DNA from: an uncultured Bacillota bacterium
GTDB taxonomy: Bacteria > Sysuimicrobiota > Sysuimicrobiia > Sysuimicrobiales > Segetimicrobiaceae
Direction: 5' to 3'
Length of the DNA: 64,000 nucleotides
NCBI GenBank assembly: GCA_963804645.1
Contig: CAWDRG010000018.1
Span: 46,116 to 110,115 of the forward strand
The translations under genes were made by a program, and so were the position numbers. Positions 59,996 through 64,000 of the stretch are shown here, piece by piece. The notes below the pieces were generated by a model. The model worked only from the letters and a program-made list of their open reading frames with translations, was not told the DNA's origin and made no database searches. Positions within the stretch are counted from its first letter, which is position 1. Each line of letters opens with the position of its first letter.

Positions 59996-60840
59996 GCGCG
60001 GCCGTGGGACGGCCCGCGAGACGGGCGCCGGTGGGCGACCGGCCCGTGTGGTGGGTGTATGGGCTCGTCGCGGTGTTCGCTGCGCTCGTGCTCGGCATCG
60101 TGCTGTCGGTGTTGTTCAACTCGTTCGCCGCGACGTGGTTTGGCGGGTGGCTGCCCGACGCCTACACCACGAAGTGGTACCGGTTCGCGGTCACGGAGTT
60201 CGGGCTGGCGCAGGTGCTGTGGGTCACCGTCGAGGTTGGGCTGATCGTGACCGCCGTGGCGCTGGCGCTCGGGCTGCCCGCGGCGTACGTGCTGGCCCGG
60301 CGCCAGTTTCCCGGCAAGGGGCTCGTCCTCCTGGCGCTCGTGCTCCCGATGATGGTGCCGCCGATCACCTACGGCATCCCGCTCGCGGCGATGATCTACC
60401 GCGCGCGCCTCGGCGGATCGCTCGCCGGCGTGATCATCGTGAACATCGTCCCCGCGCTGCCGTTCGTGGTGCTGATCATGACGCCGTTCTTCGAGCAGAT
60501 CGATCCGAATCTTGAGCGCGCCGCCCGGACGCTCGGGGCCCGTGCCACGACGGTGTTTTCCCGCGTGCTGCTGCCGCTCGCGCTGCCGGGCGTGCTCGCG
60601 GCGGGGCTGTTGATCCTCGTGCGGACGATCGCGCTCTTCGAGCTCACGTTCCTCGTGTCGGGCGCACGGAGTCAGACGATCGTCGTCGCGCTCTACTACG
60701 CCGCGTTCGCGGCGGGGATCCGGCCCAGCCAGTCGATCGACGCGATGGCGGTCGTCTATATGGTCATGAGCCTCGTGCTGCTCCTGACGGCGCTCCGATT
60801 CGTCAACCCCGTCAACATGGTGATGCGCGTCCGGCGCTGA
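59992..60840 (+). CDS. ABC permease (PotC-like)
   Basis: IDPNLERAARTLGA EAA loop; polytopic. Confidence 0.88.
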   Translation: MSAAVGRPARRAPVGDRPVWWVYGLVAVFAALVLGIVLSVLFNSFAATWFGGWLPDAYTTKWYRFAVTEFGLAQVLWVTVEVGLIVTAVALALGLPAAYVLARRQFPGKGLVLLALVLPMMVPPITYGIPLAAMIYRARLGGSLAGVIIVNIVPALPFVVLIMTPFFEQIDPNLERAARTLGARATTVFSRVLLPLALPGVLAAGLLILVRTIALFELTFLVSGARSQTIVVALYYAAFAAGIRPSQSIDAMAVVYMVMSLVLLLTALRFVNPVNMVMRVRR

Positions 60841-61055
60841 CCCCGTTCCTATCGCTGGCGCCGTCGCCGGTTCGGTTCCCGGTCATCTGGACTCCTTCGA
60901 ACGAAGCGACCCGGCCTCCAGTGGTGGCCTGCGTGTTTCTCCTATGAAGGCTTTTGTCAAGATACTATGAAGGGCCATAGCGGAGGATAGAACGAGTCGC
61001 TGCTGGTAGGCTCCTCTCGCCCTAGTCCGCGAGACAAGGAGAAAGGAGCATACGG

Positions 61056-62207
61056 ATGACCACAGCGACTCGCACGAGTCAGTATACCAGCACGGCGTCT
61101 GAGGTAGCGCAGGTACTGTACGTTGCGTTCGAGTTGGGTGTCAGCGAGTGGAAGATCGGCTTCACCAAGGATCTCGAGACCAAGCCGCGCGTACGAGTGG
61201 TGCCGGCACGAGAATTGAAGCAGTTAGCCCGAGAGATCACCGCCACGAAGCAATGGTTCGCACTCCCGGCGAACGCAACGGTGCGGAGCTGTTACGAAGC
61301 AGGGCGCGACGGATTTTGGCTGCATCGGCACCTCGTGGCAGAGGGGATCGACAATCGAGTGGTGGACTCGGCGAGCATCGAGGTGACCCGGCGCAAGCGA
61401 CGTGCAAAGTCCGACGGATTGGACGCGCGCAAATTGCTCACGATGCTGCTTCGGTCCTGTGCCGGCGAGAAGAAGGTGTGGAGCGTTGTGCGGGTTCCCA
61501 CGGTCGAGGAAGAGGATCGACGCCAGCTGCACCGCGAGTTGCGTACCTTGAAACAGGAACGGACGCGGGTGGTGAACCGAATGCAAGGTTTGCTGGCGAG
61601 CCAGGGGCTGCGGCTCCCGAAGGGCCGCGACGTGAGTGGGCAGTTCGACGCGATGCGGTTGTGGGATGGAACACCGCTTCCCTCGGGATTGCGGGCGCGG
61701 TTGCAGCGGGAGTGGGAGCATGCGCAGTTCTTGCATGCCAAGATCCTGGAGTTGGAGCGACAGCGCTCTCAGGCGATCAAACACGATCGCAGTAAGGCCG
61801 TCGACAAGGTGCGACAGTTGCTGCGTCTGCGGGCCATCGGAGAGACCGGGGCGTGGGTGTATGTGAACGAATTCTTCGGCTGGCGTCAGTTCAACAATCG
61901 GAAGGAAGTGGGCGCCGCTGCCGGCCTTGTACCGACGCCGCACCAGAGCGGAGACGGCAAGCACGAACGAGGAATCAGTAAGGCGGGGAACCGACACATC
62001 CGAGCAGTCGCCATCCAACTGGCCTGGGCTTGGCTGCGATACCAACCCGGCAGCCGGTTGAGCAAGTGGTTCGAAGAACGGTTCAGCCGCGGGGGGCCCC
62101 GCGCGCGGAAGGTCGGTATCGTCGCCCTGGCGCGCAAGTTGTTGATCGACCTGTGGCGGTTCCTCAGGGATGGAACGGTTCCCGAGGGTGCGCTGCTGAA
62201 AGCGTAA
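61056..62207 (+). CDS. IS110 family recombinase (element A)
   Basis: YVAFELG, CYEAG, KSDGLDA, GLVPTPHQSG, GISKAGN, IVALARKL. Confidence 0.93.
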   Translation: MTTATRTSQYTSTASEVAQVLYVAFELGVSEWKIGFTKDLETKPRVRVVPARELKQLAREITATKQWFALPANATVRSCYEAGRDGFWLHRHLVAEGIDNRVVDSASIEVTRRKRRAKSDGLDARKLLTMLLRSCAGEKKVWSVVRVPTVEEEDRRQLHRELRTLKQERTRVVNRMQGLLASQGLRLPKGRDVSGQFDAMRLWDGTPLPSGLRARLQREWEHAQFLHAKILELERQRSQAIKHDRSKAVDKVRQLLRLRAIGETGAWVYVNEFFGWRQFNNRKEVGAAAGLVPTPHQSGDGKHERGISKAGNRHIRAVAIQLAWAWLRYQPGSRLSKWFEERFSRGGPRARKVGIVALARKLLIDLWRFLRDGTVPEGALLKA

Positions 62208-62499
62208 TCAGCAGTATCGACATACTCATCTCAAACTTTTGCGAAGGGGGTACGGAAGCGCTGAGCTCAAGAGCTGGTGGAAGGCGCTCGCAGCCAAGGG
62301 GCGGGCATCAACCGATGTCAAGATGGGGCGCCTTCCTCCAGGCCTGTCTAATTCGCCGCAAAGCGAATATGGAATGTGGTGACTGGTCCAGCGTGGACCA
62401 GCACGGATAGAAGTTGGTTCGAGGCCATCCGGCCCGACCAGGCGAAACAGGCCGCCAGCGACCTTGGAGTCAGCGCGAGATGAATGATCGATCGAGGGG
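62208..62499 (+). ncRNA. Predicted bridge/seek RNA of element A (boundaries approximate)
   Basis: Stem CTGG-T-GGAAGGCGC/GCGCCTTCC-T-CCAG with internal loop matching the target flank; ATAGAAG (62407-13) matches own right end. Confidence 0.7.
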
Positions 62500-62524
62500 T
62501 TGACAGCGGCGGCCCTCATAGAAG

Positions 62525-62905
62525 TCCCCATCTTGCGCGTCTGCCGGCCGCAATTGGAGGTCCTTCCCCGCGACAAGGCAGTCAAGGGGCGCGTAGCGAG
62601 CCGAAGGCCTCGCCCTTGACGGGCGTGGGAGCGGGGATAGGGTTTTGCAGCGCCGGCAGACGCCGGTCCCATTCCCGCCCGCCTGGACCTCGTTGCCACA
62701 TTCAGGATACGCCCGGTCACACACCTCCGCTGGCTACGGCATCGATCTGTCTGCCTTGCATTAGCAGAGCCTAGTCATTCTCCTATTGGTGCCCGTCAAG
62801 ATGCCCGGCACACGTTATGGTTTGACCCACGGCTCCCTAATCTCTCTAGAGGGCCTTCGTGCCCAGAAACAACAAGAGGGCAGCCGGGGACGTGATTCTG
62901 TGGCA
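62525..62905 (-). ncRNA. Predicted bridge/seek RNA region of element B (boundaries approximate)
   Basis: 3' non-coding end; minus ATAGGAGAA (62786-62778) identical to B right end (60945-60937). Confidence 0.6.
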
Positions 62906-63946
62906 TCAGGACGCAGCCTCTTCTGCGGGCCGCGCTGGCCGATCCTCATAGCACCGCCGTTCTGTCCACACGGTCCACGCGAGCTGAGCCAACTTCCGCG
63001 CGGTGCACACACGAGCATCATGGGCACCGCGGCGGGCCTTGATCTGATCGTAGTAGCGGCGCACCGAGCTCGACGCCCGAAGCGCTGGCCCGACGGCTTC
63101 AATGAACGCCCATCGGAGCCACTTGTTGCCTTGCTTGGTCAGAGGCCCGTGGTACACGCGCGTATTGGACGCGTAGGTCGAAGGGATGAGCCCCGTGTAG
63201 CAGGCAAACTTCTTCGCATTGCGAAACCGCGTCATGTCATCGACTTCATACCGCAGCAGCACGGCAAAGAAGGGACCGACCCCAGGTAGACTCGCGAGCC
63301 TGGTGACGATCTCGTCGCCTTTGGCGAATTGGGCGATCAGGTGATCCGTTGCGATGATCCGCTCTCGCAGCGTCGTCAGAAGACTGAGATCATCGCGCAA
63401 GAGCTGCCCGTCGGGTGCGGGGAGGGCCAGCTGTTGCAACCACGCGAGGCCAGCTTTCCCATAGAGGTCGGTCACATCCGGGATCTCGATCGCATGCTGG
63501 GCGAGGAGAGCGTGGATGCGGTTTTTCACCATCGTCTGGACCCGTACGAAAAACATCCGCTGCCGGAGCACGCGTTTGATCGCTCTGGTCTCCTTGGATG
63601 GCGCGTACGCTTCCGGGATCAGATCTGCCCGCAAGAGATGAGCGAGCGTTTGAGAATCGATAGTATCCGTCTTGATGCGCGCGTCGGCGATGGCGCGGAC
63701 CCTTGCGGGGTGTGCTAGAACGACGTCGTCAACGAGCTCATCCAACCAGTCGTACACAGGGCCCCAGTTATAGGTCGCTTCCACCACGGCCTTGATGGGT
63801 TCCTGATAGTTGGCAAAAAACTTCCGCAGCTCATCGCCCGAGCTCGGGATCCGTTTGCGTGCGAGCACCTTCCCAGCTTCGTCCATGATCGTCACGTGCG
63901 TCGCTGTGCGATGTGCGTCTACCCCTGCGTACAGCACCTTGTCCAC
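62906..63946 (-). CDS. IS110 family recombinase (element B)
   Basis: YAGVDAH, VVEAT, KTDTIDS, LPGVG, GLIPSTYAS, TKQGNKWLRWA, ARKL. Confidence 0.93.
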   Translation of the reverse strand: MDKVLYAGVDAHRTATHVTIMDEAGKVLARKRIPSSGDELRKFFANYQEPIKAVVEATYNWGPVYDWLDELVDDVVLAHPARVRAIADARIKTDTIDSQTLAHLLRADLIPEAYAPSKETRAIKRVLRQRMFFVRVQTMVKNRIHALLAQHAIEIPDVTDLYGKAGLAWLQQLALPAPDGQLLRDDLSLLTTLRERIIATDHLIAQFAKGDEIVTRLASLPGVGPFFAVLLRYEVDDMTRFRNAKKFACYTGLIPSTYASNTRVYHGPLTKQGNKWLRWAFIEAVGPALRASSSVRRYYDQIKARRGAHDARVCTARKLAQLAWTVWTERRCYEDRPARPAEEAAS

Positions 63947-64000
63947 CTCCCGCTTGTTCCGTCTTGGGTCCCAGTACTTCGCGGTGGACTGGCGCCTTCA

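Follow-up and report, generated by a model that had tools for sequence, protein, structure and literature searches.

Element A, an insertion sequence at the right edge of the window (the whole 64,000-nt stretch of DNA analysed here), is very probably an IS1111-group element whose bridge (seek) RNA specifies the site TGTCA-AG-(C/T)CCC and which has landed in the right end of a second IS110-family element, B. The two transposase genes lie tail-to-tail, A at 61056-62207 on the + strand and B at 63946-62906 on the - strand. For A we observed its family membership and boundaries, an empty site, two further occupied sites carrying the motif, and covariation between guides and flanks among its relatives.

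Element A occurs as a single copy in assembly GCA_963804645.1. Its ends were set by aligning the left and right ends of ~100 relatives, which gave the following parts:

60962..62522, + strand: body of element A, 1561 bp, an IS1111-group IS110-family insertion sequence; one AG core comes in addition
60960..60961, + strand: AG core, left copy, from the flanks of the related locus L039 against uninterrupted B and from a joint that skips 1563 = 1561 + 2 bp
62523..62524, + strand: AG core, right copy, on the same evidence as the left copy at 60960-60961
60965..60976, + strand: left subterminal inverted repeat CTATGAAGGGCC, with its partner GGCCCTCATAGA at 62511-62522, 11/12 complementary
61056..62207, + strand: transposase of element A, 383 aa, matching NCBIfam NF033542 and Pfam PF02371

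The transposase scored 190.8 bits against NF033542 (IS110 family RNA-guided transposase; cut-off 140), 53.2 bits against PF02371 (Transposase_20, C-terminal) and 22.2 bits against PF01548 (RuvC-like DEDD), the last under its cut-off of 29. By phmmer the A protein had 0 hits among PDB sequences; structures were reached with a profile built from the family of A, which matched the transposases of ISCro4 (E 1e-13) and IS621 (E 3e-12). The profile alignment spans positions 218-370, the C-terminal domain, including the nearly invariant serine S298 within ...yqSG..., and the IS621 structure in this alignment is 8wt6. Read from the alignment pattern alone, the first acidic position of A's DEDD domain seems to be Glu (E26). 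The non-coding ends of A measure 94 nt on the left (60962-61055) and 315 nt on the right (62208-62522). A right end longer than the left, with the RNA region 3' of the transposase gene, is the layout described for the IS1111 group (PMC11208160), so these lengths, together with subterminal repeats that relatives keep as CTATGAAGG / CCTTCATAG, give element A the layout of that group. Judged by its sequence, A is a member of the IS1111 group of the IS110 family.

The core was placed with the help of L039, a relative 75% identical to A that lies within a B-like element. The flanks of L039, ...GAGATTAG|A... and ...CATAGA|AGGGAGCC, match the unbroken GAGATTAGGGAGCC of B (~62833-62846, minus strand), so that AG is all that is present at both junctions and A therefore comprises 60962-62522 plus one AG. 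AG is also invariant in both guide strands of the relatives. We had first assumed an AGA core and a TTGACA-N17-TACTAT junction promoter, and dropped them because the L039 flanks, set against uninterrupted B, show an AG core. TTGACA sits 17 nt from A's right end, and with AG in the circle junction the spacer to TACTAT becomes 19-20 nt, which would be long for a sigma-70 junction promoter. No back-joint of abutted A ends was listed among the aligned public contigs, the search covering contigs only.

The insertion of A divides B into the following parts, the contig itself ending at 64000, inside B's left end:

62906..63946, - strand: transposase of element B, 346 aa (NF033542 221 bits, PF01548 73 bits, PF02371 77 bits)
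62525..62905, - strand: 3' non-coding region of element B, ~380 nt, with an outer stem 62537-62548 / 62652-62663 round a hairpin at 62582-62621
60935..60959, - strand: outer ~25 bp of B's right end, severed by A, reading (CT)TGACAAAAGCCTTCATAGGAGAAAC; its last 5 nt on the + strand, TGTCA at 60955-60959, are the left target

Part of B's 3' region is 81-87% identical to stretches adjoining two IS110-family genes of the same genome, on contigs C15 and C10, and its 12-bp outer stem shows compensatory changes. This likeness and the compensated stem make it probable that the region is the guide RNA of B itself. The left flank of A, read on the minus strand, is CTTGACAAAAGCCTTCATAGGAGAAAC (CTTGACAAAAGCCTTCATAGG), a build like that of the A-family right end CTTGACAGCAGCGCCTTCATAGA. 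The B-like elements on C15 and C10 run unbroken through the homologous TGTCAAG-CC(T/C)CCC, and contigs in the DNA sequencing runs X1 and X2 contain the empty site, joining 60958 to 62522 with 1563 bp left out; a shared AAG leaves 3 bases of ambiguity in the joint. In a further X2 contig, ...CATGAAGGTTTTTGTCAAGTC is followed directly by 62526. Contigs with other surroundings part from the window at 60935 and 60937; B's terminus is accordingly set there, and A lies ~25 bp from B's end. A is inserted in the right end of B at its CTTGACA motif, with no duplication beyond the AG core. When B was reconstructed by computation as it stood before the insertion and compared by BLAST with B-like loci of 94 phylum genomes, no alignment spanned the junction, and a motif screen of these loci was uninformative on the empty site. 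Tail-to-tail IS110 pairs recur in this genome (on contigs C6, C19, C21 and C17), which would suit a history in which B was inserted beside A, or in which A and B make up one two-gene mobile unit. We nevertheless consider either version extremely improbable, since contigs from two DNA runs carry the B end without A, joined exactly at the core, A is found elsewhere with other flanks, and A splits B's right-end sequence, which removing A restores. The original prediction, made from the letters of the window, had named the non-coding end of another insertion sequence as A's natural target, and A's site in the window does lie in the non-coding right end of a second IS110-family element.

The RNA that would direct this insertion was proposed to lie in A's 3' region, with 62274-62341 as its target-binding loop. 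We arrived at the same assignment: the guides match A's site and covary with flanks across the family. The relevant features are:

62274..62341, + strand: the bridge/seek RNA's target-binding loop, with the outer stem 62274-62287 / 62328-62341, from the predicted fold and compensatory changes in relatives
62298..62302, + strand: right-target guide GGGGC in the 5' strand of the loop, predicted to pair with core G 62524 and T-C-C-C at 62525-62528
62316..62322, + strand: left-target guide TGTCA plus core AG in the 3' strand of the loop, same sense as 60955-60961, 7/7
62371..62414, + strand: putative donor-binding part of the RNA, with a candidate right-donor guide, a hairpin, a left-donor guide and one further base

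The outer stem sets 62274-62287 (CTGGTGGAAGGCGC) opposite 62328-62341 (GCGCCTTCCTCCAG) and is composed of CTGG/CCAG plus GGAAGGCGC/GCGCCTTCC, each side having a single base unpaired. The minimum free energy fold of 62260-62350 is the structure originally drawn, at -41.7 kcal/mol; its z-score is only -1.78, and 11 of 200 shuffles fold equally well. The entire 3' region of A folds better than 100 of 100 shuffles (z = -3.53). Among relatives the layout of the loop is constant: outer stem, GCUCG, a variable 5' strand, a CCGGGCC...GGCCG hairpin, a variable 6-mer, AG-A-(U/A/C)-GGGG, and the outer stem again. The inner hairpin GGCATC-AACC-GATGTC that had been described is present in the window at 62304-62319, but it is not the conserved one, for relatives carry CCGGGCC...GGCCG at this place; in the window it overlaps the guide ATGTCA. 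Compensatory substitutions in the outer stem include GGAAAGCGC/GCGCUUUCC, GUGAGCGGC/GCCGCUCGC and CCGGGCG/CGUCCCGG. RNAalifold, run on a MAFFT alignment, replaced part of the local stem by a long-range pairing between CTGGTGG and CCGCCAG (62452-58) and did not cleanly return the outer stem, so we tested the stem by strand-swap duplex energies. The mean duplex energy was -18.6 kcal/mol for a sequence's own strands (n=55 distinct relatives) and -13.2 kcal/mol for strands swapped between diverged sequences (206 pairs), 16.5% of the swapped pairs matching the own-pair energy. An Rfam scan of 60800-64000 at E <= 1 returned no family. Two contigs from metatranscriptome libraries cover 62246-62374 (X18, 0 differences) and 62013-62249 (X19); both are of read length and cannot show strand, ends or transcription, and such contigs carry no information on parts outside their cover.

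To read the guide code we gathered relatives of A: genome contigs supplied 24 loci, and of 236 loci on metagenome contigs the best 80 were taken. The loop region is present in 75 of these loci, giving 56 distinct loop sequences, and guides were compared with flanks using one site per distinct guide and a null of 10,000 shuffled pairings. This analysis revealed that, across the family, the loop carries on its 3' strand a same-sense copy of the five bases adjoining the element on its left and of AG, and that the 5' strand is complementary to the right flank from the G of AG onward. The left flank agreed with the 3' strand at a mean of 4.27 of 5 positions (null 1.62, n=26), and the right flank with the 5' strand at 3.42 of 5 (null 1.79, n=31), a figure lowered by a few distant relatives whose anchoring is one base off; 0 of the 10,000 shuffles reached the observed value on either side. 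Position by position, the left-target match extends over exactly 5 nt (0.73-0.92) and stands at 0.15-0.27 farther out, and right-target complementarity is 0.84 at the core G and 0.87, 0.68, 0.74, 0.58 and 0.55 at right-target positions RT1-5, followed by background.

The window follows this code. The two RNA bases after the left guide, AT (62323-24), equal A's first two bases, so that 62316-62324 (TGTCAAGAT) repeats 60955-60963, from the left flank into A's first two bases, at 9 of 9 positions. This is the strongest match of the loop, one that the original prediction had missed; a same-sense run of at least 9 arose in 1 of 2000 dinucleotide shuffles of the 68-nt loop. On the right the pairing in the window is short, with 4 Watson-Crick pairs and 1 G.T wobble, and the distal 8 nt of the loop's 5' strand do not fit the window's right flank; at L032, a metagenome locus with another copy of A, the right guide forms 5 Watson-Crick pairs with its flank. 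The locus L047, 90% identical to A, carries the same left guide and a right guide TTGGC (UUGGC in RNA) that meets the flank GCCAA (AG-CCAA...). Its guide and right flank have changed together, which adds one more compensated change.

The loop had originally been read in a different register, as in IS621, with the 3' strand CAAGATGGGG pairing the right flank CCCCATCTTG and the 5' strand GCAGCCAAG corresponding to the left flank plus core. The stem, the inner hairpin and the 10-nt and 13/14 matches behind that reading all exist where they had been placed. Reverse-complemented, the segment 62319-28 (CAAGATGGGG) gives 62526-35 (CCCCATCTTG) exactly, and a reverse-complement run of at least 10 against the 30-nt right flank was reached by 5 of 2000 dinucleotide shuffles of the 68-nt loop; moreover, in IS621 the left guide does lie 5' of the right one (PMC11208160). 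Set against these points, the register appears very improbable. AGATGGGG, which lies inside the 10-mer, is conserved in relatives irrespective of their flanks, and 56 distinct relatives whose right flanks are unrelated keep AGA(T/A/C)GGGG; the G run of this motif can pair with CUC just inside the outer stem. The resemblance of the 5' strand GCAGCCAAG to the left flank TTTTGTCAAG is real but weak, at 5 of 9 positions. Covariation of loop and target among homologues of A, the check that had been suggested, was found, but it assigns the two strands the opposite way. Two other sites of A read CCCCAACTGG and TCCCCTCGGT, without the ATCTTG that the 10-mer would pair, and the seekRNAs of IS1111-type elements have the reversed order: as described in PMC11187229, their top-strand match lies 5' of their bottom-strand match. 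The strand order of A's guides is the order published there.

The segment 62290-303 agrees with 62578-91, in B's hairpin, at 13 of 14 positions, as had been pointed out, and a 14-mer with at least 13 matches anywhere in 62526-62905 on either strand occurred in 2 of 200 shuffles. A guide function for this match is not supported. We rejected 62578-91 as a second target site, since the adjoining left-target and core bases do not fit and covariation in the family does not extend beyond RT5.

The second module of the RNA carries a candidate right-donor guide GGAAT at 62371-75, a left-donor guide ATAGA plus core AG at 62407-13, and a further base T at 62414. CACGGATAGAAG is near-invariant in relatives and equals the right end CATAGA+AG; likewise near-invariant is CACGGAUAGAAG (62402-13), which repeats the right end CATAGA+AG. 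Since the left-donor guide ATAGA+AG is itself near-invariant, it cannot covary. The candidate right-donor guide covaries with the left end in part, in some clades: the two pair as AGGAT/ATCCT in 28 loci, AGTAT/ATACT in 4 and GGCAT/ATGCT in 1, but of 52 loci compared, 14 have a central mismatch, A's clade among them, with one A-A mismatch in the window. The base after the donor AG tracks RT1: it is G with G in 38 of 38 unique sites and T(U) with T or C in 6 of 6 (24 plus the best 80 of 236 loci). This extra base seems to follow a logic that resembles the handshake guides of IS621, with the difference that IS621 has its handshake bases on the top-strand guides and A its extra matching base after the bottom-strand guides (PMC11208158).

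Two further insertion sites of A came from environmental data. On the metagenome contig of L032, a copy of A that is 99.3% identical over 1590 nt, with a 100% identical protein, sits at TCTTGTCA-AG-CCCCAACTGG. Its left flank is right-end-like (CTTGACAAGACTCTCATAGG on the other strand), and its right flank holds, by tblastn, the C-terminal part of an opposite-strand IS110-family transposase whose frame stops at a TGA within TTGACA. Run X1 shows the same flank junction as L032, and because the two may be one data set we counted three independent sites of A, not four. In run X2 the right end of A (62318-62529, no differences) runs on into TCGGTGACACATGTCTCCCCGT, which is the flank of a free site of this genome, C1:151121 (TTGTCAAGTCCCC|TCGGTGACACATG; also read TGTCAAGTCCCC|TCGGTGACACATG), 307 nt downstream of an IS110-family gene fragment. 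The three sites all read TGTCA-AG-(C/T)CCCC and have nothing else in common, so the ATCTTG of the originally predicted target is not needed; of the motif on which that prediction had staked the flanks of other insertions, GTCAAG and (T)CCCC are kept and ATCTTG is absent. A count of IS110 right ends among A's targets had also been proposed, and it came to at least two of the three known sites (the window and L032), the third being known only from its right junction in X2.

On the opposite strand the target word reads GGG(G/A)-CT-TGACA and lies just inside the right end of IS110/IS1111-type elements. In the set of 24 plus the best 80 of 236 loci, TGTCAAG (opposite strand) is present in 41 of 46 distinct A-family right ends and the full word TGTCAAG[CT]CCC in 21 of 46, with the consensus GGGGCTTGACAGC. 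A and L047, the only two distinct elements of this set with the guide TGTCA+AG, are among the five exceptions. Their right ends read GGGG-TTGACA, one C short (TGTCAAC on the other strand), and the missing C destroys the AG core of the word. In A the feature is:

62500..62505, + strand: TTGACA in A's own right end, preceded by GGGG, without the C

As A and L047 are close relatives, the missing C counts as a single evolutionary event, and the base loss is suggestive of self-avoidance, not proof of it. When the phylum was searched for more copies from A's lineage, members of the family turned up, none with the guide TGTCA+AG.

The arrangement of A in B may represent parasitism, hitch-hiking or a safe harbour. 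A possible, still speculative, interpretation is that A and L047 form a hyperparasitic lineage. Its guide would be aimed at the right-end word GGGGCTTGACA of its own family and of other IS110/IS1111 elements, it would escape its own guide through the lost base that removes the AG core, and, since insertion between the host's body and its last ~25 bp leaves the host's end and TTGACA intact, it could ride as cargo when the host moves. Alternatively, the target may be incidental, an 11-12-nt word that merely occurs in some IS ends, without adaptation, the self-avoiding loss of a base being chance or drift. Several observations fit this second explanation. The genome contains 3 free copies of TGTCAAG[CT]CCC against ~5.3 expected from composition, so the word is not enriched, and one of the three, C19:53694, has no IS110 gene nearby (1252 nt to the nearest IS110 gene hit). 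Other family members aim 12-14 nt past tRNA genes (L033, L041, L077) or, in the large L011 group, at the region round the start codon of a gene for a secreted protein; such differing targets indicate that aiming at IS ends belongs to some guides and not to the family. The missing C, as a single event shared by close relatives, weighs on the same side. Against an incidental target, IS110-family right ends hold 2 of 3 observed sites of A and 2 of 3 free sites of the genome (the C1 right end and a relic of an A-family right end at C10:198283), two tallies that overlap, because the third observed site, of which only the right junction was seen, is one of the free sites. Furthermore, the word is the right-end consensus of A's own family (the 41 of 46 and 21 of 46 right ends given above for the 24 plus best 80 of 236 loci), and IS110-family transposase genes lie in the flanks of 8 loci of the same set (L032, L038, L039, L040, L044, L045, L049 and L109). 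The flanks were searched by tblastn with 11 IS110-family proteins; 76 of the 104 loci have a flank of at least 300 nt on one side, and many loci repeat one site. Taken with this evidence, we consider an incidental target unlikely.

For an element aimed by its RNA at the right-end word, we propose the following course of events. A encodes a DEDD-type transposase, and a bridge (seek) RNA would be made from the region downstream of the transposase gene. TGTCA+AG, on the loop's 3' strand, would pair with the bottom strand of the left target and the AG core, and the 5' strand, GGGGC, with the top strand at the core G and the first four right-target bases, so that the guides would specify TGTCA-AG-(C/T)CCC; the second module (62371-62414) would match A's own ends. 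In this way A would have been inserted ~25 bp from B's terminus, tail-to-tail with B's transposase gene. We infer that A produces this RNA, that the transposase binds it, and that its pairing directs strand exchange as in ISEc11 and IS621. It is plausible that B is still mobile with A inside, since a cargo set 46 bp from the right end of ISEc11 was still moved (PMC11187229).

These results provide a natural example of an IS1111-type guide code, in which the left target contributes 5 nt and the right target ~4-5 nt on either side of an AG core, with one extra position past the core, accompanied by an empty site and three occupied sites from environmental data. The family of A offers ~30 natural guide/target pairs on one scaffold, which are of use for engineering. 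The results also show that the functional end motif of siblings can be what a guide is aimed at. If self-avoidance and hitch-hiking are both true, A and B would exemplify in simple form how RNA-guided transposons compete with or parasitize one another, and A would also illustrate how such an element avoids cutting itself.

Several of these traits are shared with known systems. With ISEc11, ISPa11, ISKpn4 and ISPst6 (Siddiquee et al. 2024, PMC11187229), A has in common a DEDD-type transposase and a long non-coding region 3' of the gene, and with the IS1111 elements of that study subterminal inverted repeats, short guides for both target strands and the lack of a target duplication. It differs from the four in its AG core and in a target that is an IS110-family right-end motif, and no close sequence relationship to them was established. 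With IS621 (Durrant et al. 2024, PMC11208160; Hiraizumi et al. 2024, PMC11208158), A appears to share a two-module RNA with a target loop and a donor loop, the latter putative in A, each loop holding one guide per strand round a 2-nt core, and an extra 'handshake' position past the core. In IS621, however, the RNA is placed 5' of the gene, with the left guide ahead of the right and a CT core (PMC11208160), whereas A has its RNA region 3' of the gene, the right guide ahead of the left and an AG core.

Both the kind of element and its insertion in other mobile elements are already known. IS1383 inserts in the inverted repeats of IS1384, IS4321/IS5075 in the inverted repeats of the Tn21 family, and ISEc21 in IS3-family transposase genes (PMC11187229), and the IS1111-attC group is a further case; A shares with all of these a site-specific insertion in a conserved part of another mobile element. 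A target that is the end motif of an element's own relatives seems not yet to have been described: the literature searched contained no account of an IS110-family element that aims at right ends of this family, and the supplementary target tables of the 2024 papers could hold cases. We regard the target choice of A as a modest novelty. Compared with IS1383, IS4321/IS5075, the attC group and ISEc21, A has a host in its own superfamily and a target word that is the right-end consensus of its own clade; its insertion leaves the host's terminal ~25 bp and TTGACA intact, and its own end is one base short of the word.

Insertion into elements of the type of B, the minus-strand IS110-family element whose right end holds A, extends to a second member of A's family. 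A relative 75% identical to A (L039) lies in a B-like element approximately 70 nt past the transposase stop (L039:150-300), at GAGATT-AG-GGAGCC (left flank, core, right flank), a word that stands unoccupied in the window's B at 62833-62846 on the minus strand. Since both A and L039 sit in B-type elements, two different guides of A's family hit this kind of target. G000, the genome of the window, also contains another IS110-in-IS110 instance besides A in B, in which an IS110-family element of about 1.4 kb, E, is placed inside the 3' region of another such element, D, tail to tail with it and about 135 bp from its end.

Loci of E and D in G000 (contig:positions)
C6:106376-109300, E/D locus
C19:112825-116032, E/D locus
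C21:520-4897, E/D locus
C17:852727-855713, E/D locus
C16:28-1519, D present without E, its end uninterrupted

Other relatives of A occupy different sites. Three close ones (L033, L041 and L077), with 77-84% identity to A, have a tRNA gene in the left flank and lie 12-14 nt downstream of it, at (A/G)TCA/GCA-AG-GGTT. About 35 loci of one clade (L011, L014 and the L050-L099 group) share CCACCG-AG-GTGCCCATG, being either a single orthologous site or members of a gene family that is repeated; the ATG in this site is the start codon of a gene whose product has a signal-peptide-like N-terminus. For L047, which is 90% identical to A, a search for the left junction did not find it, and a different sequence occupies the expected place of the left end (L047:1000-1200), starting some 50 nt before the start codon.

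Right-end words were also found elsewhere. An A-family 3' end relic in G000 (C10:198267-198433), 82-83% identical to window 62353-62524 and without a transposase gene, contains A's target word in unoccupied form, TGTCAAGCCCC. In sequencing run X1, a contig departs from the window at 60965 as a loose end and then reads ...TAAGTCATGTCAATCCCCC; this continuation is similar to the right flank of the A relative L038 (TAAGTCATGTCAAGTCCCC), and therefore more such right-end-like words occur in related contexts.

B itself probably encodes its own guide RNA, as judged from its 3' region (window 62537-62663, minus strand), where a 12-bp outer stem (62537-48 / 62652-63) encloses the hairpin GTCAAGGGGCG...CGCCCTTGAC. 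This stem shows compensatory changes in the B-like elements of C15 and C10 (L003 and L004), whose 3' stretch is 81-87% identical to that of B, whereas their transposases are just 27% identical to B's. In A's RNA, CUGGUGG (62274-62280) could also pair with CCGCCAG (62452-62458), approximately 175 nt downstream, a predicted pairing that is preferred by RNAalifold and would close both RNA modules. Compensatory changes are seen in it to some extent, with one pair reading GC 28 times and CG 5 times.

A's transposase (window 61056-62207) scored below the cut-off of the Pfam RuvC-like model, and the alignment pattern across residues 20-30 suggests that its clade carries, at the position of the first Asp of DEDD customary in IS110 transposases, a Glu that is almost invariant (E26, in LAFELG).
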